Below, one piece after another: positions 31,971 to 62,635 of a DNA stretch of 64,000 nucleotides. The notes under the pieces were generated by a model. That model was given only the letters and a program-made list of their open reading frames with translations. It was not told the DNA's origin and made no database searches. A program made the position numbers and the translations under genes. The stretch covers positions 32,001 through 96,000 of the IMG/VR virus record IMGVR_UViG_3300028558_000001; one strand, given 5' to 3'. Source of the DNA: a virus. Positions within the stretch are counted from its first letter, which is position 1. Every line of letters begins with the position of its first letter.

Positions 31971-32468
31971 TTAATGATGAGCACATAATTGGAAATGCAT
32001 TGGATCAATATCATTGTTTGCACCGCGCCAACAAAATCCATGCTTCTGTAGAATTGTAGCAAACTTCTCATCAATCATCTGTCCACCAGTATACTTATGA
32101 GGGAATGGATTATGTTGTGGGTCCATATCAATAGCACATCCCCATGAATGTACTGATAGACGTGAACCGCCGCGTTCAAGGCGATAACAGAAGGTTCCAC
32201 CAGTAATATTGAGTCTCTTGGCAACAATGTAATCATGACCAAGTGTATTAAGTACGTCAGTAAAAGCAGCGTCGAATGTCTCTAGTGTCTTTTTATGAAC
32301 TTCTAGATGTAACATCGCTTCTTTTGGATTGCCAGAATAGAACATTGGATATGGAGTAACCCAATGTGTCATGTTTTCGGCATACCACTTTGGATCAACG
32401 TTGCCGTTTCTTCCTCTTGGATTGCCATAAAAAGCATCTAGTTCAACAATATTTTCTTTAGGCCACAT
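31971..32468 (-). CDS. M15-family peptidoglycan peptidase (probable endolysin)
   Basis: R..SVHSWGCAID...DPMHFQ Zn motif; AATAAATA at 32499-32506 upstream. Confidence 0.85.
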   Translation of the reverse strand: MWPKENIVELDAFYGNPRGRNGNVDPKWYAENMTHWVTPYPMFYSGNPKEAMLHLEVHKKTLETFDAAFTDVLNTLGHDYIVAKRLNITGGTFCYRLERGGSRLSVHSWGCAIDMDPQHNPFPHKYTGGQMIDEKFATILQKHGFCWRGANNDIDPMHFQLCAHH

Positions 32469-33160: not shown

Positions 33161-33934
33161 TTAACCCCAAGATATTAAAACTCGTCCATTACCACCAGTG
33201 CCGCCTTGTGAATAACCTGATATAAGACCACCGCCGCCACCGCCGCCTACTGTTACGGACAGTCCTGTTCCTACTGCTATATTTCCAATGTAATAAGTAG
33301 ACTGTGAATAACCAGCGCCACCGCCTCCCCCGCCGCCGATCCCGCCACCGGAATTATAACCGCCGCCACCGCCACCACCCGGCCATGATCCTCCACCACC
33401 GGCTGTTCCCCCCGCAGCACCGCCGCCACCACCACCCGGCGAGCCGCCACCAGCACCGGCATAACCTAATCCACCAGAACCACCAGAATTACCACCGTCG
33501 TTTACTTGATTACCACCACCAGCAGAACCACCACCGCCTCCAGCATAATATCCAGAACCACCACCGCCTCCAGAAGCCCACAAATATCCACTTATTTGTG
33601 ATGTTCCACCACCAGAACCACCAGCATAAACATAATTAGTATAGCCAGCAGTACCGCCGCCGCCGCCACCCCAAACTTGGAATGTTATCCAGTTGAAGTG
33701 AGGAACATACCAAGTATAAGTTCCGGGCGTTCCTTGGTCCCATGAACCGGGAACGGCAGAAGTAGTTCCATAGAATTGTTTAATATCAATCAGACCTGAT
33801 GTGGGTACACCAGCGTTAGCAGAAATATTAGGAACGTATGAACCACCGCGATAATATGATTTTAAATCATTACCACCACCGAATTCGTTAATAATATTTT
33901 TTAAGCTTATTAGTCCAGAAGATGGAAGAGTCAT
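33161..33934 (-). CDS. Glycine-rich adhesin (gp38-like receptor-binding tip)
   Basis: N-terminal LPSSG.ISL..I..EFG..YYRGG..P.SG.I...FYG, followed by polyglycine motifs. Confidence 0.75.
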   Translation of the reverse strand: MTLPSSGLISLKNIINEFGGGNDLKSYYRGGSYVPNISANAGVPTSGLIDIKQFYGTTSAVPGSWDQGTPGTYTWYVPHFNWITFQVWGGGGGGTAGYTNYVYAGGSGGGTSQISGYLWASGGGGGSGYYAGGGGGSAGGGNQVNDGGNSGGSGGLGYAGAGGGSPGGGGGGAAGGTAGGGGSWPGGGGGGGYNSGGGIGGGGGGGAGYSQSTYYIGNIAVGTGLSVTVGGGGGGGLISGYSQGGTGGNGRVLISWG

Positions 33935-35757
33935 TTACTTTCCAGTATTTTGATTCTATCTTGTAGTTCTTTAATTTGCTTTTGTTGAGCCTGAACCGCG
34001 CCAATTAAATCGAAGATAATCTTATTTTCAGAAACAGTTAAATATGGATTTCCATTTTCATCTTTAGATGTTTCATTAATATGAACTGCATCTGGATTAA
34101 TTGGTACAACTTCCTGTGCGATCAAACCTCTTTGACGTTCACCTTCTTCTTTACCATTGATAGAACGTCCAATAGTATTCCAAGAGAAATCAACTACTCT
34201 ATATGAGTTTACTCTATGTAGACCTTCAACTGCATTAACAGAGACAATGTTTTCCTTAAGTCTTTCATCTGACCATGAAGCGTAAAGATCGCCAGTAGTA
34301 TAGAAGTTTCCATCATAGTTCATTAACCATTTAATAGTATTAGTATGGTCATTGAAACCATGTTGGTAGGAAGAGCCATTAGCAGCGGAAACATAAGTAG
34401 AGGTTCCGTTAGGTGTTATTTGAATTCTGGCAACAGAATTAGCATCATAGATATAACCAGTTGTAAGAATATGATTTGTGGATGATATTAATCCACCAAA
34501 GTTAGTTCCTGCTCCAGTACCGTCAATATTTACAACGCCAGTTGAAAGGTTCCAAGAAAGAGGTCTAAAGCTATTATATGTTCCTGTAGTATTGCCAGAT
34601 GCAGTCTGCATGAAGTACATAGAAGCACCATCATTACGGAAGAAAGTAGCATATGTTCCTCCGACTAATCTATATTGACCACCAGTACCGGAAGCATCAG
34701 TAGCAATTGCTAAGATAGAATTTGCTGCGATAGTATTGGCATTAATAGTATTTGATGTATGGGCAACAATAGTAGTTGTATTTGCTACGATAGTATTTGC
34801 GGTAATTGCAACCAAGTTAGCATTATTAGCTGTTACTGAATTGGAAGTAACAGATACTAAGTTAGCGGTATTAGATGTTAAAGCAGTAATTGTTCCGGTA
34901 TTGCTTCCAAGATTTACGGTAGAAACAGTATTAGTAGAAACAGTATTAGAAACAGTTAATATGCCTGTTGTACTATTGTATGTAAATGCCGCAGAAGCAC
35001 CCATTGTTCCAGAGCTATTAAACTGAACCTGTGTGTTAGCACCACCAGCAGCTACTAATGACGCAATAGAAACATATGAACCATTAGCATTTAAATAAAA
35101 TGATCCATTTGAAATGGCCGCTGTAGAAGGAACGGTAATATTAATGTTAGAGGTAGAGTTAGCTACCGCTATACTTGATGGTGTTAGAGTAACCTTGACA
35201 GTTGAGTTACCAACTAATACTGTATTATTTGTAGTTAGATTGGCATTAAGTGTTACAGTATTTCCAAATGTAGTTGGAGCATTTACAGTTAGGTTGTTTG
35301 AGGTAACTACTAGATTATTAGAATTAAATGCAGTATTAGAAACATTGAATGTAAGTAGGTTGGTGTTTACAGTATATGTATTAGAAGTAACTGATGAGTT
35401 TACAACAGATACAGACCATATAGAAGTATTAACTGAAACAGAGTTTGACGGAGTTAATGCAATATTCAGAGGGGTCATTGAGAAGAAGGTATTTGTAGTA
35501 TTGGCAAATACCGTATTGGTAACAATATTTAAAGTATTTGGAGCATTGATGGTCCCGCCACCAATGGAGTTACCGACGTTTAATACATTGATACCAATAT
35601 AGCCGTTACATACACCATTACCAGTTGTTACTGATCCAGTAGTGCTAGAATCTACAGTAAAGGTATTTGATGAAATGATTGTAGCAATCTGGTTAGTTCT
35701 GGTTAACCAAACTCCAAATGACTGACTATTTGCAACTGTAGAGACTGTAATTGACAT
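33931..35757 (-). CDS. Tail fibre with C-terminal S74 intramolecular chaperone
   Basis: WSDERLKEN cleavage motif, GLIAQEV, coiled-coil end; N/S/T-rich beta shaft. Confidence 0.88.
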   Translation of the reverse strand: MSITVSTVANSQSFGVWLTRTNQIATIISSNTFTVDSSTTGSVTTGNGVCNGYIGINVLNVGNSIGGGTINAPNTLNIVTNTVFANTTNTFFSMTPLNIALTPSNSVSVNTSIWSVSVVNSSVTSNTYTVNTNLLTFNVSNTAFNSNNLVVTSNNLTVNAPTTFGNTVTLNANLTTNNTVLVGNSTVKVTLTPSSIAVANSTSNINITVPSTAAISNGSFYLNANGSYVSIASLVAAGGANTQVQFNSSGTMGASAAFTYNSTTGILTVSNTVSTNTVSTVNLGSNTGTITALTSNTANLVSVTSNSVTANNANLVAITANTIVANTTTIVAHTSNTINANTIAANSILAIATDASGTGGQYRLVGGTYATFFRNDGASMYFMQTASGNTTGTYNSFRPLSWNLSTGVVNIDGTGAGTNFGGLISSTNHILTTGYIYDANSVARIQITPNGTSTYVSAANGSSYQHGFNDHTNTIKWLMNYDGNFYTTGDLYASWSDERLKENIVSVNAVEGLHRVNSYRVVDFSWNTIGRSINGKEEGERQRGLIAQEVVPINPDAVHINETSKDENGNPYLTVSENKIIFDLIGAVQAQQKQIKELQDRIKILESK

Positions 35758-36009: not shown

Positions 36010-36017
36010 TATTTATA
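36010..36017 (-). promoter_or_regulatory. T4 late promoter TATAAATA
   Basis: Exact consensus 18 nt upstream of the ATG. Confidence 0.7.
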
Positions 36018-48997: not shown

Positions 48998-49417
48998 TTA
49001 ACGAAGACGTTTAAGAATTAATGATAGTGTTATCGGAGCAGGGTTGTTTACTAATGAAAATGTCAGAGATACATTTAAATAATTTTCATCTGAACTTGGC
49101 GAAACATCTAGAGAAACAATCTTTACGCGAGGTTCATTGAATTCAATTGTATTTGTTATAGCGAATTTTATAGTATTTATCCCAATATCAACGTTCTGTT
49201 CGAACAATTGGCGCTTAACATCTGATCCAATAGTAGAATCATACCATCTTTCCCCAAGATTTGTTAGGATAAGACATTTTAGTGACTGCTTAATCGCCTG
49301 TTCATTAGTAACAACAGCAAGTCCATTAGATAATGGATTCATATCAAGGTTCATTGGTATATCAGAGAAATATACCTCTTGCTTTTTATTTGGTGTAATG
49401 AAATCAGAACGACTCAA
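48998..49417 (-). CDS. 25: Baseplate wedge subunit
   Basis: AIKQS...LILTN.GER..IGS..LFE..EPRV. Confidence 0.92.
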   Translation of the reverse strand: MSRSDFITPNKKQEVYFSDIPMNLDMNPLSNGLAVVTNEQAIKQSLKCLILTNLGERWYDSTIGSDVKRQLFEQNVDIGINTIKFAITNTIEFNEPRVKIVSLDVSPSSDENYLNVSLTFSLVNNPAPITLSLILKRLR

Positions 49418-49431
49418 TGTAGTATCCTTAT

Positions 49432-50175
49432 TTAAGAAATATTGACTTTTCCAGAAGCAGTAAGATCAATGTCGCCTCCGTCAGCCTTAAGAGTAATTTT
49501 ACCAGATGATTCAACCATAATATCACCAGCAGCAGTTTTAATCGTTACAGTTTGTGCATTAATAGTAGTAGTACCAGATGCCTTGACGGTAAAATTTTGA
49601 CATGCTAGTTGATAATTTCCATTGACTTTAATATCATAGTTTCCTTCAACATATGATCCTTTTTCTGATGCACAGTGTTCATATCTAACACCAGAAATAA
49701 ATTCGATAGAATCACCATCTGTTGAATGGTGAATAGAACCATCATGAGCGGTAACAGTATCTCCAGACGAACTTTGTTCATTGCCGTGCTTGGCATGTTG
49801 GTAGCCAGAAGCACCAGAAACACTAATTACAGACTGTCCTACTGCACCTGATACCGTTCCGCCATGCTCGGAATGATGATCACCATCCGTTTGTTTAACT
49901 GATGATCCGGCAATCTTAGTGTGATGATTGCCTTCTGTTGTGCTTGTCGTGCCGCCTTGGTTGTAATTATGAACTGTATTAGTAGAAAAGTGTTTCCAGC
50001 TTCCATCAGATGCAAATTCATGATAAGAACCTGTCTTATGTCCCCAACCTAAACTCTCAGAACCGGGAGTAGAATCTTGACGATGCCAAGAACCGTCTCT
50101 AAATTGATAGAAATCAACGTAGGGATATGTACCATTATTTGCTAAATCAGGAAGTTTCTGATTTTTATCTGTCAT
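49432..50175 (-). CDS. 5: Baseplate spike, gp5 C-terminal beta-helix part (separate gene)
   Basis: YPY..DSTPG.E..HKTGSY.E followed by 8-residue xxG repeats. Confidence 0.8.
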   Translation of the reverse strand: MTDKNQKLPDLANNGTYPYVDFYQFRDGSWHRQDSTPGSESLGWGHKTGSYHEFASDGSWKHFSTNTVHNYNQGGTTSTTEGNHHTKIAGSSVKQTDGDHHSEHGGTVSGAVGQSVISVSGASGYQHAKHGNEQSSSGDTVTAHDGSIHHSTDGDSIEFISGVRYEHCASEKGSYVEGNYDIKVNGNYQLACQNFTVKASGTTTINAQTVTIKTAAGDIMVESSGKITLKADGGDIDLTASGKVNIS

Positions 50176-51512
50176 TTAAATAGTGTTCCTACAACCGATT
50201 TAATTTGGTTTATCTGTGCTGTTGGTAGATTTAAACCAAGACCATTTACAATATTTACCATATTTCCATTGAGCATACTCGCGGCTGGAGAACAGGCCAA
50301 TTCGGCAAGAGCTTTTTTACCAGACTCAGGCATTTTAAGAATTGCTTGGTTCTTGGCAAATTTCTGTAACGCTTGTTGTACTGTGCTAACATTTAATACA
50401 GAATTTGGTAAATGATCTGTGTTAGTTTTCTGAATTAAGTTACCAATTACTGGAATTAATTGTGCGACGTTATTCAGAATATTTCCCTGAGTGATACCAG
50501 AACCTAATGAATTAGACGTTGTTGCGTCATTCATCTGTGAAATATATTGTTGAATTAATGCTTCAAGAGTTAAATCTGTTAAAGTACCAGAGTTAATTAA
50601 ATTTAATAGATCACTAGCAAATTGACTTCCCTGTGATTGAACAATAGACTGAACATCTGGAGTGTAGCTAGTTTGTGTTTCTAACTGCATTAATGCTGAA
50701 TAGATAACTTGTCTTGAAGTATCTGAAATATTAGTTGAATTTAGAGCATTAACTAATGCTTGAATAATGTACTCCATTGACGTAGAAGATGCCGCCTGTG
50801 AAATACCAGATGATACAGATGATCCAGTTGTTTGAATATTCCCCATTGGAGAAGATATATTCATTAACTGTTTTAATTTTGTTAGAGCCTGTACAGCCTG
50901 TGGTAGTGATGCTGATAGATTGTTTGGATCGACTTGCTGTAATTGTCCTAGAACAGATTGTACAGAGCCGGGGAGAGAAGCAATAGTTGGTGCTGTTCCT
51001 AATTTAGTAACTTGTTTTGCTAATGCAACAATATCTCTAGCATCATTATCTGTTGTTGCTGGCGGCATATTGCTTCCGCTATCATCATTCTTAATATTCT
51101 TATTAGCTCTTGTTGAGAATGCATTATTAGCAACTCTTGCACCGGGAGGGGTGGAATTGGTTTTAGGATCAACTTGAACCTGTCCATTTACCGTAGTTCC
51201 AGCAACAGGATCGCCTGATTTTGCAATTGTTCCGAGCATGATTGGATATTGATGATCTGCATCTAAGAACATACCAAATACAGTAGAACCTTTTATAACT
51301 CCTACGGGAGCGGAACCAATTTGATTGTGTGCGGCTGATTTAATATTTTGAAGTGGAATACCCCAAGGATAATCGGATTCAGGAATACCAGCAGGATCAT
51401 CATATTTTCCATGAATCTTTAACTGTACTCTACCAGCTTTATCTTTATCATCTAAATTATGAACTTCTGCAATGAAGAATGAGCCGCCTTGTCCAAAGTT
51501 ACGATCAGTCAT
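50172..51512 (-). CDS. 5: gp5 N-terminal OB-fold part plus a non-lysozyme helical extension
   Basis: GRVQLKI.G..PW..P..SAA..G.APVG...GS.VFG.FLD...QYP.MLGTI. Confidence 0.82.
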   Translation of the reverse strand: MTDRNFGQGGSFFIAEVHNLDDKDKAGRVQLKIHGKYDDPAGIPESDYPWGIPLQNIKSAAHNQIGSAPVGVIKGSTVFGMFLDADHQYPIMLGTIAKSGDPVAGTTVNGQVQVDPKTNSTPPGARVANNAFSTRANKNIKNDDSGSNMPPATTDNDARDIVALAKQVTKLGTAPTIASLPGSVQSVLGQLQQVDPNNLSASLPQAVQALTKLKQLMNISSPMGNIQTTGSSVSSGISQAASSTSMEYIIQALVNALNSTNISDTSRQVIYSALMQLETQTSYTPDVQSIVQSQGSQFASDLLNLINSGTLTDLTLEALIQQYISQMNDATTSNSLGSGITQGNILNNVAQLIPVIGNLIQKTNTDHLPNSVLNVSTVQQALQKFAKNQAILKMPESGKKALAELACSPAASMLNGNMVNIVNGLGLNLPTAQINQIKSVVGTLFK

Positions 51513-54500: not shown

Positions 54501-54567
54501 AATAAATATTATATCTATTTAAACTATTTATAGGAAAACGCGCGACTTATCTCTAGGAGTATTTATG
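54501..54567. promoter_or_regulatory. Cluster of late promoters between divergent genes 48 and 4
   Basis: AATAAATA (+, 54501-08), TATAAATA (-, 54525-32), CATAAATA (-, 54560-67). Confidence 0.6.
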
Positions 54568-54577
54568 GAAAAGTATA

Positions 54578-55039
54578 GTGGCATATAAGTACTATAATGG
54601 TTATTATAAACCCAAGAATCCAAAGAAGTATAATGGTAAGGATTTAAATAATATTGTTTATCGTTCTGGTCTTGAATTAAAACTCTTTATGTACTTGGAT
54701 GCTCATCCTGACGTGATTTATTGGGGAAGTGAAGAACTAACCGTAGATTACATATCACCAAAAGACAACCGTAAACATAGATACTTTCCAGATGTAATTG
54801 TTAAACTTAAAGATCGCAACGGAAAGATTATTACTATGATGATCGAAATAAAGCCCTCGGATCAAGTTAATGAACCGAAGGCTATTGAGCGTGGTAAGCA
54901 ACCAACTAAACGACAGATTAATGAAATAATTACTTATGGTGTTAATCAAGCCAAATGGGCGGCAGCTAAAGTTTTCTGTGCCCAACAAGGTTGGGTATTT
55001 GAAATCATGACAGAGAAAGATATTAAAGGGTTGAAATAA
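54578..55039 (+). CDS. 4: Head completion nuclease
   Basis: PKNPKKY.G...IVYRS..E, W.SEE, HRYFPD, IEIKP, VNQAKW.AA. Confidence 0.93.
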   Translation: MAYKYYNGYYKPKNPKKYNGKDLNNIVYRSGLELKLFMYLDAHPDVIYWGSEELTVDYISPKDNRKHRYFPDVIVKLKDRNGKIITMMIEIKPSDQVNEPKAIERGKQPTKRQINEIITYGVNQAKWAAAKVFCAQQGWVFEIMTEKDIKGLK

Positions 55040-55412
55040 TATACTCAATAGCTTGAGGTACATGTTCAACAGTATTAAATTCACCGTTTAAAATATCTTC
55101 AATATGATAGATAGATACAATCTCATCTGTCTTGGAAGTAAAATACATCGGAGAAATAGTAGTATAATAGATGAACATTATTGCATCATCATATTTAATT
55201 GTTTCTGATAAAATGAAATTTTCTTCATCAACATTACAACCAGCTTCTTCTAATAGTTCTCTTTTAGCAGCAGTACGTGGAAGTTCACCTTCCTCTACTT
55301 TACCACCAATACCATTTAGTTGATCCTTCTGCCAATCTGGTCTTTTCTTTCGGATAAGAAGAACCTTATCCATAGTTTGGTTAAAAACAAACGTTAGTAC
55401 ATATTCTTGCAT
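55023..55412 (-). CDS. NUDIX hydrolase
   Basis: GGKVEEGELPRTAAKRELLEEAG Nudix box. Confidence 0.92.
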   Translation of the reverse strand: MQEYVLTFVFNQTMDKVLLIRKKRPDWQKDQLNGIGGKVEEGELPRTAAKRELLEEAGCNVDEENFILSETIKYDDAIMFIYYTTISPMYFTSKTDEIVSIYHIEDILNGEFNTVEHVPQAIEYIISTL

Positions 55413-55663
55413 TAATATTGCTCCTGTAAATTATTCCTTGTAAAAGTTAATGAAATCTTATTATCTACTACTTTAGATTCATAACTAACCAAAACTCCAT
55501 ACGTTACACCATTATGATAACGGTCAATAGCATGTGCCATAATGGTGGATACATTATATCCATACATAGCCGCAAAATCATGAGCAAATTCTGGAGAATA
55601 CTCATACTCAATACCTTTATAACAACCTTTAATTGTTCCAGTTATTCCATCATACATAGCCAT
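55412..55663 (-). CDS. 83-aa protein resembling a segment of major capsid protein gp23
   Basis: EYSPEFAHDFAAMYGYN versus T4 gp23 AYSIELAQDLRAVHGMD (recalled from memory). Confidence 0.5.
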   Translation of the reverse strand: MAMYDGITGTIKGCYKGIEYEYSPEFAHDFAAMYGYNVSTIMAHAIDRYHNGVTYGVLVSYESKVVDNKISLTFTRNNLQEQY

Positions 55664-55941
55664 TAAATTTCCTTAATATCAATTACAATTTGATTATTAT
55701 CAATCATTATAGGAGTATTGTTAGTAGAATCACATACTATATTAAAAACTTCTAATTCTGGAAATGAAAAGTTAATAATACTACGAACATTAAGTCTAGT
55801 TAAAGCATCATTCATTTCAAATAAAATATAATCATAGATAACTTTTTTAATAGTTTCTCTTAAAGGTAAAGAGATTAAATTTGATATATTATCATCTACA
55901 TTAATGATAATAGTATCTTTTGGTGACATTACATTTAACAT
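55663..55941 (-). CDS. 92-aa protein resembling the C-terminal domain of tail sheath gp18
   Basis: LFEMNDALTR..IVCDSTNNTPIMIDNNQIV versus gp18 LFELNNAFTR..VVCDTTNNTPSVIDRNEFV. Confidence 0.7.
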   Translation of the reverse strand: MLNVMSPKDTIIINVDDNISNLISLPLRETIKKVIYDYILFEMNDALTRLNVRSIINFSFPELEVFNIVCDSTNNTPIMIDNNQIVIDIKEI

Positions 55942-55953
55942 TAATTATTCCTT

Positions 55954-58167
55954 TTAAATTAAGCATCCATCTGCACCGTTGCCGACACATGCAGCAGCAC
56001 CGGTAGTTGAAACATCAATGTATTTCTTTTCAAAGAGAGAATTTTCCCAATCAATGTCAACTAGGTTTTGCTGAATCTTTTCCCACTTGTGAAGTAGATA
56101 TACGTCCTTGAGACAATATTCAGCGTCTTTTCTTACTCCACTAAAGTAATTGACACGATACTTCTCAAAGCGACGAATCCAATCCTTCTTAAGAAGATTA
56201 TCATGATCATCAGAGGAAATATCTGCACCAATTCCATATACAGCAGAACAAGCTGTCCATAGATTTCCAAAGGCTCTAAGAGCTTCGACAACTAATCCAG
56301 ATGCAAAGATTGCTCCTGTACCATAATATTCAATGATTTCTTCACCGCTCATGACTTTAGTGAATGGAGCCTGATCGTAATCTTTATCTCCTGATCCTGC
56401 TAGGAATGAAATACCAGCAAAAGTTTCCTTATGGTTAAAGACATATTCTTCTACTGTATCCCAATCATCAACTGTTACTGTATTAGAAATATTATGTCTA
56501 ACTGTTGGATCAACACATAGATCAAGATTAGTACCAGCTTCAACCCAATTTTTCTGAGCCTTAGCAATTAGTTCAAGATGCTTAACTCCTAACAAATCCT
56601 TATTGAAGATAGAAGTCTCAGGAGCAATAACAGGGAATGATACAACATAATCCGTTTTATTAGCTGACCATACTGATTCTTCTACCATATATGGATTGGT
56701 CTTCTTGATTAACTGAGCTACTTCGGTATCCTTGTTTAACTGCATGTTTCTTAGATACATTGGTGCATGTTCGCCACCAATACCAGAAGCAGTCATTAGA
56801 AGAACAGATGCATTACCAGATGGCTTGGAGCATGTGGTACGAGCAGCAGGATTAATGCCAATCATTTCGGCAACAATCTTATTAGTTTTCTTAACGATTT
56901 CAGCACCAGTTCTTAGAACTTCTTCATCAAATAGAATAGCAGGATTATTCATCCAACCAGTAATTGATACTCCTAATAGTGCTTCTCTCTCAAAAATCTT
57001 CTTTGAGGTCTCTGGTAAGAAGTTAAAGGTAGTATAACCAGCCTGTAGTGTACCGATAATTGCTCCTACCTTACATGCTCGATAGAATGTTTCAATATCA
57101 GAACACATACCGCCATTGGTTTCTACAAGATTACAGCCCTGCCAACCAGTCTGACCTTCATATTGAGGGAACATACCAATTTCTACACAAGGATTGTAGA
57201 CATGTTCTTCTGAATCAACAAAGACGAATCCGGGTTCACCAAATTCCTTAACACTCTTCATAAGTGAAGCGAACTTTTCTCTAGTAATCTTGGAGCGAAC
57301 AATGACTGCGGAGTTATTGGAACGTCCTCTTTGTGGGTTATCTGTGAACCAATTACCAGTCTTTGCCGTTGCCATTTCCTCATCTTCTGGTGAGAATAGG
57401 CAAATTGTAGCAGAACGACGAACACCACCAGAAATGACAGCATCAGCAGCATACATTACAATATCATAGACATGAATTGGTTTTAATTCAATTCCGCCCT
57501 TCTTGGAAAGTGTTAGTCCCTGTAATAGATACTCGATCTTATCTAGAGCTAGACGGAGAGGTTCTGGACCCGGAGCCTTGAAGCCACCTGAAATCATTGA
57601 ATTCTTAAGTCTAATTAGGGATAGATCAAAGTAAACTCTGCGGCCTTCGTATTCAGGATACTTACCGCCGCCCTCAAAGAAGGAAGCCATTAGAACGTCT
57701 AATGCTGTTGCCCATCCTTCAATAGAATCTTCAACGACATGAAGCTTGGGCTGCTTGGTGCGGAGTTTAATTTTGGGGAGTTTAGAGATATGGTGCTTTT
57801 GTACAGAGAAACCAGCACCAGCACCACATAACATAACCCAAAAGATTTCACCAAAAAATTCTGGTCTATCTGCATATGTAGAAGTACAATTATACATCTT
57901 CATATGGTTCTTAAGGATTTGATCGCCACCGAACTGTAAAGCTCTCTGAGCGCCTAGAACTAACTTGTCTTGATATGCGGAAGTTGCTTCTTCGATTAGT
58001 TCTAGTAATTGTGGTGTTAATTTATCTTCATAATACTTTTTATGCATATTCATAACTCTTAAGACTGATTCATTCCAAGTCTCGTATCTTCCAAGTTCCT
58101 CATCCCATCTAGAATAACCTTCATAAAACTTGGTGTCAGACATTAATTGACGTGTATTCAAATACAT
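55954..58167 (-). CDS. nrdJ: Class II (B12-dependent) monomeric-type ribonucleotide reductase
   Basis: YNC, LCG.G.GFSV, SGGVRRSA, NPCVEI, GCNL, KPSG, C-terminal Cys pair; no nrdB nearby. Confidence 0.85.
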   Translation of the reverse strand: MYLNTRQLMSDTKFYEGYSRWDEELGRYETWNESVLRVMNMHKKYYEDKLTPQLLELIEEATSAYQDKLVLGAQRALQFGGDQILKNHMKMYNCTSTYADRPEFFGEIFWVMLCGAGAGFSVQKHHISKLPKIKLRTKQPKLHVVEDSIEGWATALDVLMASFFEGGGKYPEYEGRRVYFDLSLIRLKNSMISGGFKAPGPEPLRLALDKIEYLLQGLTLSKKGGIELKPIHVYDIVMYAADAVISGGVRRSATICLFSPEDEEMATAKTGNWFTDNPQRGRSNNSAVIVRSKITREKFASLMKSVKEFGEPGFVFVDSEEHVYNPCVEIGMFPQYEGQTGWQGCNLVETNGGMCSDIETFYRACKVGAIIGTLQAGYTTFNFLPETSKKIFEREALLGVSITGWMNNPAILFDEEVLRTGAEIVKKTNKIVAEMIGINPAARTTCSKPSGNASVLLMTASGIGGEHAPMYLRNMQLNKDTEVAQLIKKTNPYMVEESVWSANKTDYVVSFPVIAPETSIFNKDLLGVKHLELIAKAQKNWVEAGTNLDLCVDPTVRHNISNTVTVDDWDTVEEYVFNHKETFAGISFLAGSGDKDYDQAPFTKVMSGEEIIEYYGTGAIFASGLVVEALRAFGNLWTACSAVYGIGADISSDDHDNLLKKDWIRRFEKYRVNYFSGVRKDAEYCLKDVYLLHKWEKIQQNLVDIDWENSLFEKKYIDVSTTGAAACVGNGADGCLI

Positions 58168-58213
58168 TAACTTACTTACCTCTTTATAATTTTTGATTAA
58201 ATTTCATAGCGAC

Positions 58214-58221
58214 TATAAATA
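58214..58221 (+). promoter_or_regulatory. T4 late promoter TATAAATA
   Basis: Exact consensus upstream of the gp2-like gene. Confidence 0.7.
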
Positions 58222-58249
58222 CTTACATACTATATTTAACTCTCTAATA

Positions 58250-58954
58250 ATGGATTTTTACTTGGCAGACTACCTTTTTCAACAAATTCGCAAAGAAGCT
58301 AAAACATTCCGAGACGAAGACGGTCAACCGATCAGTCTCAGACGAAATGAAGAAAAGGCCAGAGAATGGTATCAGAACGCGGCTGAGCAAGTAGCATCAG
58401 TCAATAATAACAGACTATTCCAGTCTATGGACCCATTTACTCGTTTCCAACGTATTGACTCAAGGTCAATTGGAAAAATGTACATGTTCCAATACGCAGC
58501 CAAGCATAGGGATAGACTTCCCTATTATGACATGTTTCCAATCGTTTTTCCAATAGAAATTTATTCTAATGGATTTCTTGGTATTAACCTCCATTACCTT
58601 CGCCCATATCATAGAGCATGGTTAATGGATGAACTTTTCAAGTTGAAAAATAATGATAGCTGGAATAAGAACACTAAACTCCAAGAAGATAAAGAAGCCG
58701 CTCTTTCATATCAATTCTTGAAGTCAGTTATTCCTTCCCCACTATTCAAGCCTACACTTCACAGGTATCTCATTTCAGATTCATCTAAAGGATATTACGC
58801 TGGTGTAGTATCTCCAAATTTCTATTATATCAATCCCGGTTTATGGGATTACGCTGCCCTTCTACCAACTCAACGTTTCGTAAAGGGTATCCACAATACG
58901 GCAATCTCATCAGAGCAAGTCTGGTTGGATTCAAACTCTGCTCGTTATCGGTGA
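58250..58954 (+). CDS. 2: DNA end protector protein (start 58250 or TTG at 58262)
   Basis: GKMYMF.Y.AKH...LPYYD.FP..F, GINLHYL, LPTQRF, VW.DS. Confidence 0.9.
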   Translation: MDFYLADYLFQQIRKEAKTFRDEDGQPISLRRNEEKAREWYQNAAEQVASVNNNRLFQSMDPFTRFQRIDSRSIGKMYMFQYAAKHRDRLPYYDMFPIVFPIEIYSNGFLGINLHYLRPYHRAWLMDELFKLKNNDSWNKNTKLQEDKEAALSYQFLKSVIPSPLFKPTLHRYLISDSSKGYYAGVVSPNFYYINPGLWDYAALLPTQRFVKGIHNTAISSEQVWLDSNSARYR

Positions 58955-58983
58955 TAAGAATAGTATTATAGCAAAGAATACTC

Positions 58984-59024
58984 GTCCTGCCAAGTAGAAA
59001 TATTTGGCAGGATTTGTCTTTTTT
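58984..59024 (+). terminator. Rho-independent terminator
   Basis: gtcctgccaagta-GAAA-tatttggcaggat followed by ttgtctttttt. Confidence 0.75.
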
Positions 59025-59026
59025 AC

Positions 59027-59055
59027 TTGACACGTTTTTTGGAACTTGGTATAAT
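59027..59055 (+). promoter_or_regulatory. Perfect sigma70 promoter upstream of primase
   Basis: TTGACA-N17-TATAAT with extended TG. Confidence 0.85.
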
Positions 59056-59135
59056 CCATATGTGTTCAGCAAGATAGTAATTGTTTTTGGTGACACTACA
59101 GGATCAACAGTTAGTAATAGGCGAAGTTAGGTATC

Positions 59136-62194: not shown

Positions 62195-62227
62195 GCTAAA
62201 TAGCAATAAAGGATTATTGCTATTTTG
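62195..62227 (+). promoter_or_regulatory. Late-promoter-like TAAATA plus a 12-bp hairpin over the RBS and start codon
   Basis: gcTAAATA overlapping aaatagcaataa-AGGA-ttattgctattt then TTG. Confidence 0.6.
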
Positions 62228-62635
62228 TGGTTGTATAACGAAAATGAATTTGGTATCAAAGATATTGGTGATGACGTTGCTTTTGTTTATCTCATTACCA
62301 ATCTTCTAACTAATAAGAAATATATTGGTAAAAAGAACTTCTATTTCCAGAAGACCAGACAGGTTAAAGGAAAGAAGAAACGGTATAAAGAAATCTCCGA
62401 TTGGTTGTCATACTATGGTTCTAATGAAGAACTAAAGAATGATGTTCTCCAATATGGAGAAGGTGCTTTTAAAAGAGAAATACTTAGGTTATGTAAGACA
62501 AAAGGTGAAGCATCTTACTTTGAAGCAAAATTCCAATTTGAAACAGATTGTATCCTAAGCGAACAATATTACAATTCATGGATTAGCTGTAGAGTTAGAA
62601 AATCTCACCTTAAAAATCTTCAACAGGCCACTTGA
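62225..62635 (+). CDS. Small GIY-YIG endonuclease
   Basis: AFVYLITN...KKYIGKK, YYGS, F.REIL, YYN. Confidence 0.82.
   Translation: MWLYNENEFGIKDIGDDVAFVYLITNLLTNKKYIGKKNFYFQKTRQVKGKKKRYKEISDWLSYYGSNEELKNDVLQYGEGAFKREILRLCKTKGEASYFEAKFQFETDCILSEQYYNSWISCRVRKSHLKNLQQAT

Follow-up and report, generated by a model that had tools for sequence, protein, structure and literature searches.

Why should a phage that encodes a full-length tail sheath protein also carry, directly behind a ribonucleotide reductase gene, a separate 92-codon gene for one conserved piece of that protein? The gene in question, here named mini92, lies in a window of 64,000 nucleotides (positions 32,001 to 96,000 of the IMG/VR record IMGVR_UViG_3300028558_000001). 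The source record is a complete virus of 176,660 bp with terminal repeats, and its closest deposited relatives, as judged by the sheath protein, are T4-like phages of Stenotrophomonas, Caulobacter, Rhizobium/Sinorhizobium, and Pelagibacter (42-48% identity). The initial annotation of the window interpreted the gene as a truncated, non-polymerizing mimic of the sheath protein gp18, encoded outside the virion module. The sheath is among the most conserved myophage proteins, and thus lends itself as a target to host pattern-recognition immunity as well as to interference between phages. Coordinates refer to the window, except those with the prefix G000, which refer to the whole genome.

A stand-alone homolog of the sheath C-terminal core

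The mini92 gene is an intact, ATG-started frame of 92 codons with its own start and stop, located directly behind nrdJ as first described, and its product contains the strings LFEMNDALTR and IVCDSTNNTPIMIDNNQIV. An AAGGA site precedes the start codon by 8 nt, and the TAA stop shares one base with the ATG of the downstream gene orf83 (TAATG). The surrounding DNA had been called very AT-rich; indeed, of 270 non-overlapping ORFs predicted genome-wide, whose GC content averages 36.7% (sd 4.4), mini92 ranks lowest with 20.8%, followed by an ORF with 27.1%. Its GC content falls from 30 to 21.5 and 10.8% over codon positions 1, 2, and 3, as expected of coding sequence, and when its bases were shuffled 20,000 times, only 4 shuffles kept a frame of 92 codons open.

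The mini92 protein shares homology, well beyond chance, with the core of domain IV, the C-terminal part of T4-type sheath proteins. It matches phrog_10581, labeled 'tail sheath', with an E-value of 8.9e-8 (profile positions 817-892 of 915) and phrog_23 with an E-value of 1.4e-4 (profile positions 388-446 of 496); in Pfam, no family was matched at E <= 1, and thus neither PF17482 nor PF04984. In BLASTP, mini92 is 38% identical to the phage's own gp18 across 60 aa (E 5e-10), and a phmmer search of PDB sequences aligns mini92 residues 37-87 to residues 569-625 of the 659-residue T4 gp18 (3J2M, 9MKB; E 2.5e-4), which is consistent with the initial assignment to the most conserved stretch of the sheath. 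Domain IV of T4 gp18, made up of residues 1-24 and 510-659, is the conserved inner layer through which the subunits stay connected (PMC3004832). When 50,697 deposited phage records were searched by tblastn with mini92, 1448 of them matched, at one place each; all 40 matches listed fall in a tail-sheath gene (one annotated as hypothetical, three unannotated), and the best listed match has 40% identity over residues 4-89.

With 92 aa, as compared to 350-700 aa or more in multi-domain sheath proteins, mini92 keeps both sheath motifs, LFE.ND..TR and VCD.TNNTP..ID. An alignment comprising sheath C-termini and mini-genes (72 in total) has 17 near-invariant positions, conserved in 90% or more of the sequences other than mini92; mini92 retains 15 of these, as against 11 of the 60 remaining ones (Fisher p 2e-7). 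The protein ends at ...VIDIKEI, the equivalent of about residue 630 of T4 gp18, and is devoid of the PARSIN... last strand, the TG..F.E C-terminal arm, and the sheath N-terminus. The missing tail (last strand and arm) left no trace downstream of mini92 in any frame, including as a frameshifted continuation; the reported absence of the terminal β-arm is thus borne out. Neither a hydrophobic N-terminus nor a twin-arginine signal is found in mini92. Full-length T4 gp18 self-polymerizes into polysheaths, and gp18 deletion mutants without polymerization properties (residues 83-365; 1-510) have been crystallized (PMC3004832). Given these deletion data and the absence of both arms and the last strand, mini92 should be unable to propagate a sheath polymer. 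The proposal of a truncated, non-polymerizing mimic is upheld in that the copy is free-standing, diverged, and arm-less, while its failure to polymerize is what we infer from T4 gp18.

The AF2 model of mini92 is of low confidence (pLDDT 62.7) and comprises a strand at residues 11-15, helices at 25-38 and 46-59, and strands at 66-70 and 85-91. The top Foldseek match of this model is a T4-like sheath with a weak E-value of 0.18, and VIA-align yields Z-scores no higher than 5.2, the majority to POTRA domains whose β-α-α-β-β elements follow in a similar order; since this arrangement is common and the scores are weak, we set the fold matches aside as evidence. On a speculative reading of the model, the N-terminal strand may substitute for the missing last strand. 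The predicted complex of mini92 with residues 530-708 of the phage's own gp18 has a median score of 0.29, against a mark of 0.32, and we give this value no weight in either direction.

The complete sheath gene, which the initial annotation had suggested be located and compared, was found elsewhere in the genome: gp18 (P0139) encodes 708 aa at G000 168145-170271, behind an AGGAGG site, and a sheath profile search of the genome finds two places only, gp18 and mini92. The genome also encodes a canonical gp25 (Table 1), a gp3 homolog (G000 155302-155772), gp48, gp53, gp5, and gp6. Because gp18, gp25, and gp3 are all present, mini92 is an extra sheath-like gene of this phage. An orthologous relationship with gp25 was considered and rejected, since the canonical gp25 lies beside gp6, mini92 has no PF04965 hit, and hhalign gives a probability of 0.6% between the alignment of mini92 with its relatives and the phage's own gp25; mini92 sits behind nrdJ, and not in the baseplate wedge operon beside gp6/TssF. 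Likewise, the idea that mini92 stands in for gp3 was dropped because gp3 itself is present. The gp5-like baseplate hub (49432-51512, minus strand) is represented by two overlapping ORFs of 445 and 246 aa, which match the N-terminal and C-terminal parts of phrog_430, respectively; no match to a lysozyme region is among the hits listed for either ORF.

Genomic block and predicted time of transcription

The mini92 gene belongs to a minus-strand block of 3.1 kb, nrdJ-mini92-orf83-NUDIX, which sits between gp4 and gp2 (Table 1). Genes 4 and 2 abut in T4, and the block is, as judged by gene order, inserted between them. The description of mini92 as lying outside the virion module holds in so far as it is separate from the tail genes gp18 and gp25, but not in the sense of a remote position, since its block lies between two virion genes. 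For orf83, no family match was obtained in Pfam or PHROGs, and no similarity to gp23 in BLASTP, PHROGs, or Pfam. In 80 related nrdJ loci from IMG/VR, we found no relatives of gp2, gp4, gp48, orf83, NUDIX, or mini92. The nrdJ gene seems to travel between phage genomes on its own, irrespective of the genes around it. It has hundreds of relatives in IMG/VR at 64-72% identity, and none of the 80 fetched shares its neighboring genes.

The T4-type late promoter TATAAATA occurs at three sites in the window (Table 1), and a scan of the window finds none before mini92. One of these sites falls inside the annotated gp2 start, thus the real start of gp2 is probably the ATG at 58250. The best minus-strand promoter upstream of the block is a sigma-70-like site, which would read antisense through gp2 into nrdJ. 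As no late promoter precedes mini92 and a sigma-70-like site is located upstream, we infer, by an argument from consensus matches, that mini92 is transcribed early or middle, together with the nucleotide-metabolism genes. Between gp2 and the primase gene (58955-59135), two sigma-70-like promoters close to the consensus point away from each other, with 12/12 matches on the plus strand (59027-59055) and 11/12 on the minus strand (58993-58965), and a hairpin of 13 base pairs is located at 58984-59013. Elsewhere in the window, just after td and frd, a 136-aa ORF (62225-62635, plus strand) matches phrog_447, labeled NAD synthetase, as well as homing-endonuclease PHROGs.

Table 1. Positions of mini92, its neighbors, and the associated signals in the window.
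Feature	Position	Strand	Remarks
mini92 (P0001)	55663..55941	-	92-aa stand-alone sheath domain IV core; predicted strand-helix-helix-strand-strand; without N-arm, last strand, and C-arm
Spacer from nrdJ stop to mini92 start	55942..55953	-	12 nt; carries the AAGGA ribosome-binding site
nrdJ	55954..58167	-	nrdJ-type class II ribonucleotide reductase, 737 aa; first gene of the block; closest relatives elsewhere not syntenic
orf83	55412..55663	-	orphan, 83 aa; start overlaps the mini92 stop
NUDIX hydrolase	55023..55412	-	closes the block; its start and the orf83 stop overlap
gp4	54578..55039	+	head-completion gene; left border of the block
gp2	58193..58954	+	DNA-end protector; right border of the block
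Late promoter TATAAATA	54525-54532		just upstream of gp48
Late promoter TATAAATA	58214-58221		inside the TTG-started gp2 ORF
Late promoter TATAAATA	36010-36017	-	upstream of a 608-aa minus-strand ORF at 33931-35757
Sigma-70-like promoter	58965..58993	-	TTGGCA-17-TATAAT with TG, 11/12 matches; consensus match only
gp25	48998..49417	-	canonical sheath initiator; adjoins gp6; only PF04965 match in the genome

Free-standing relatives and maintenance of the gene

When 1.84 billion representative proteins were searched by phmmer with mini92, only weak hits were obtained (E 1e-5 to 1e-3), eleven of which are short complete proteins and not sheaths; a profile search added four more. Thus, there are at least 15 free-standing relatives (P0003, P0004, P0006, P0008, P0010, P0012, P0014, P0017, P0019, P0021, and P0023-P0027), which are 81-161 aa long, cover the sheath segment from the equivalent of SAFDRINVRR onward, and share 29-43% identity with mini92. 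A mini-gene of this set is taken to be a complete stand-alone ORF, not longer than about 160 aa, whose core carries FE.ND..TR and VCD.TNNTP..ID; mini92 has all of these features. The last strand is retained in 15 of the 15 relatives and the C-arm in about half of them; mini92 is the only member without the last strand (after the ..D.YIK.. strand). It scores 62.4 bits on a profile HMM of the mini-genes and 48.0 bits on one of sheath C-termini, whereas true sheaths show the opposite preference, and its higher score on the former may partly reflect shared divergence. Nine of the relatives (P0003, P0010, P0012, P0017, P0019, and P0024-P0027; see also L084-L089) open with a twin-arginine motif, as in DRRTFFKA, TRRGFIKL, and SRRNFLIG, which is followed by some 20 uncharged residues. 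These N-termini resemble a Tat export signal, which would imply a periplasmic sheath domain.

Within their contigs, the relatives occupy internal positions among genes for ribonucleotide reductase (RNR), ThyX, Acb5, methyltransferase, and topoisomerase II. Those contigs that are long enough to judge are T4-like, with the mini-genes located among nucleotide-metabolism and accessory genes. For instance, P0026 is found on four contigs of a T4-like phage (L086-L089) among small ORFs, where it adjoins a DNA methyltransferase gene, with a class I RNR gene and a gene of the Acb5 family about 3 kb away; P0023 (L090) comes after topoisomerase II genes and a methyltransferase. Among deposited phage records, a second sheath-like place was detected in none of 1448 records with mini92 as query, in one of 2243 with P0012, and in about 20 of 2661 with P0026; these roughly 20 records would be the first cultivable carriers. 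A scan of IMG/VR with the mini-gene profile returned 80 loci, almost all of which are sheath genes, either full-length or cut by the locus end. In one of these loci (L100:488-748), the sheath motif matches a 115-aa open frame that does not touch the locus end, and this frame could represent a further free-standing mini-gene or, alternatively, a sheath gene that is split. Closer relatives of mini92 were sought by a word-based search, by IMG/VR peptide patterns, by using gp4 as an anchor, and by way of orf83 relatives; each route returned the query itself only. To judge from their sequences, the mini-genes are a scattered, fast-evolving set in uncultivated phages, to which mini92 belongs. The literature searched holds nothing specific on stand-alone sheath C-domain genes, sheath decoys, or sheath-triggered defenses.

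In the initial annotation, near-identity to the phage's own gp18 accompanied by neutral decay was named as the sign of duplication debris. The picture observed is a different one: mini92 resembles its own gp18, at the low identity given above, no more than it resembles enterobacterial sheaths, and its sheath motif is maintained. In a maximum-likelihood tree of mini-genes and sheaths, which lacks resolution, also as to the monophyly of the mini-genes, and in which long branches may attract each other, the mini92 branch measures 3.65 changes per site and falls outside the supported clade that holds the own gp18. A recent duplication of the own gp18 followed by neutral decay does not match these observations. 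Because the frame is open at 20.8% GC, carries a ribosome-binding site, overlaps its stop with the next start, and keeps 15 of 17 conserved positions, mini92 looks like an accessory gene maintained by selection and not like neutral debris. The very low GC content suggests either a foreign, AT-rich origin or a long drift at unconstrained positions.

The sheath is not the only virion protein represented by fragments in this genome. Outside the window, a 147-aa ORF (G000 97802-98245, plus strand) contains a segment of the capsid protein gp23, with a Pfam Gp23 score of 26.9 bits against a cut-off of 24.4 and with 53% identity over 38 aa to residues 382-419 of the own gp23. An overlapping 87-aa ORF (G000 97573-97836, plus strand) has 46% identity over 37 aa to gp23 residues 219-255; the two ORFs are also found at L174:1802-2245 and L174:1573-1836, respectively. 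Both have a GC content of about 30%, as compared to 45% for gp23. Another ORF (G000 121038-121367) was considered as a gp23 fragment and discarded as unsupported (BLASTP E 0.043). No gp23 fragments were identified within the fetched flanks of the contigs that carry the other sheath mini-genes, and mini92 has no N-terminal tag in common with the other mini-genes of its own genome.

Candidate roles and comparison with known systems

We propose, with a probability of roughly 0.4, that mini92 is a real, selection-maintained accessory gene that acts as a mimic of the conserved sheath surface. According to this proposal, mini92 would be co-transcribed with nrdJ, orf83, and NUDIX; since this transcription would proceed from the strand opposite to the late genes, its product would probably be made before the sheath protein. 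Without both connecting arms and the last strand, mini92 would be unable to extend a sheath. As it is devoid of arms and yet keeps the most conserved sheath motif, it would most likely occupy whatever normally binds the conserved sheath surface. The favored, still tentative, candidate for this partner is a host factor that senses the sheath, in which case mini92 would be an immune decoy comparable to DSAD1 of phage SPbeta, which mimics the tail tube protein and traps the defense protein DSR2 (PMC10973363). The sheath subunits of co-infecting phages rank second as partners and seem unlikely; the phage's own sheath ranks third and is quite improbable. The patchy distribution, orphan status, long branches, and early-type context of mini92 are more readily reconciled with a conflict gene than with a helper of assembly, and the Acb5 and methyltransferase neighbors of its relatives and the parallel capsid fragments also favor a conflict gene. 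No sheath-sensing defense system is on record in the literature; in one preprint from 2026, the sheath is named only speculatively among the possible STAND targets (10.64898/2026.01.04.697583).

An alternative in which mini92 binds sheath proteins themselves deserves to be weighed against this mimicry. As an assembly poison or cap, it would bind the N- or C-arms of the sheath in the way of gp25 and TssE, and would thereby block the sheaths of co-infecting T4-like phages or delay the phage's own polysheath formation. Such a mode of action has natural precedents in gp25 and TssE, sheath-like domains without arms that accept the sheath C-terminal strand (PMC5924787), and it would accord with the formation of polysheaths by gp18 alone, with the crystallized non-polymerizing mutants (PMC3004832), with the family motif retained in mini92, and with an early expression that would suit the exclusion of competitors. 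However, mini92 is without the last strand of the acceptor sheet, and a poison would bring a risk of self-poisoning. A helper for the own sheath should be late, widespread, and co-evolving with gp18, whereas mini92 is an orphan in a rare family; the early-type operon, patchy distribution, and fast evolution disfavor a cap for the own sheath in particular. The poison reading also leaves the Tat-exported relatives over, and we regard it as doubtful. The putative Tat signals on nine of 15 relatives are, for their part, explained neither by a cytoplasmic decoy nor by a cytoplasmic sheath poison.

Two further explanations were weighed. The mini92 gene could be a non-functional, decaying remnant; it would then derive from a sheath gene or a longer sheath-domain mini-gene, would have arrived together with nrdJ, and would so far have escaped disruption. 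It is the shortest-tailed member of its family, being without the last strand that all relatives keep, so it could be a damaged family member; its extreme AT content, its orphan status, and the low confidence of its predicted fold point in the same direction. These features are outweighed by the rarity of such an open frame among shuffles and its graded GC content over codon positions, by the ribosome-binding site and tight coupling to both neighbors, and by the concentration of retained residues at conserved positions; moreover, no leftover of the missing tail is seen downstream, and the nrdJ relatives carry nothing similar, which makes a remnant distinctly unlikely. Finally, mini92 might be a virion component, such as a second gp25-like initiator or adaptor, an accessory of the neck or terminator, or a packaged internal protein. 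The position of its block between the structural genes gp4 and gp2 would agree with this, as would the use of several sheath paralogs in eCIS particles (Afp2-4, Pvc2-4), which were seen among the structure hits. Yet the canonical gp25, gp3, gp48, gp53, gp5, and gp6 are all present, and mini92 is encoded opposite to the late genes, in one operon with nrdJ and NUDIX and without a TATAAATA promoter; the absence of a PF04965 match, the negligible hhalign probability against gp25, and the absence of an N-terminal tag common to the other mini-genes of the genome render a virion role very improbable.

The mimic reading can tentatively be extended to an undescribed class of genes in T4-like and larger phages, namely early mini-genes that would each display one conserved piece of an abundant, self-assembling virion protein and serve as mimics in conflicts. 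In this genome, the class would comprise the sheath domain IV at 55663-55941 and the gp23 pieces at G000 97573-98245. Its members might act by trapping host sensors of virion proteins or by sabotaging the assembly of competitors, with the Tat-signal versions operating in the periplasm. The gp23-fragment genes here and the exported versions elsewhere would suggest that the mimicry of virion proteins is a broader strategy, as yet undescribed. As a reagent, mini92 makes two questions concrete: do bacteria sense the sheath, and can sheath assembly be blocked in trans?

Among known proteins, mini92 is closest to domain IV of T4 gp18 (PDB 3J2M, 9MKB; Pfam PF17482, Phage_sheath_1C), of which it is a sequence homolog with the same two motifs. 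T4-type gp18 proteins, in contrast, have 659-708 aa and possess domains I-III, both arms, and the last strand, all of which are absent from the 92 aa of mini92; mini92 further differs by its early-type operon and by its lack of a Pfam hit. The free-standing relatives (for example P0026 in L086-L089, P0023 in L090, and P0006 in L091) resemble mini92 in their conserved core, stand-alone organization, and long branches, but all of them keep the last strand and nine of the family bear twin-arginine signals, neither of which is found in mini92. The only described natural stand-alone sheath-like domains are gp25 and TssE (PF04965, GPW_gp25), which are small and arm-less and have strands that resemble the sheath 'handshake' domain (PMC5924787); there is no detectable family relationship between these proteins and mini92, which is much closer to gp18 and is encoded outside the baseplate operon. 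With regard to the proposed action, the nearest parallel is DSAD1, a small phage protein that mimics a tail structural protein and occupies the pocket of a sensor without activating it, and we propose that the same logic may apply to mini92. The two proteins share no homology. The target of DSAD1 is known, whereas a sensor for mini92 is postulated, and mini92 is a true homolog of the protein that it would mimic.
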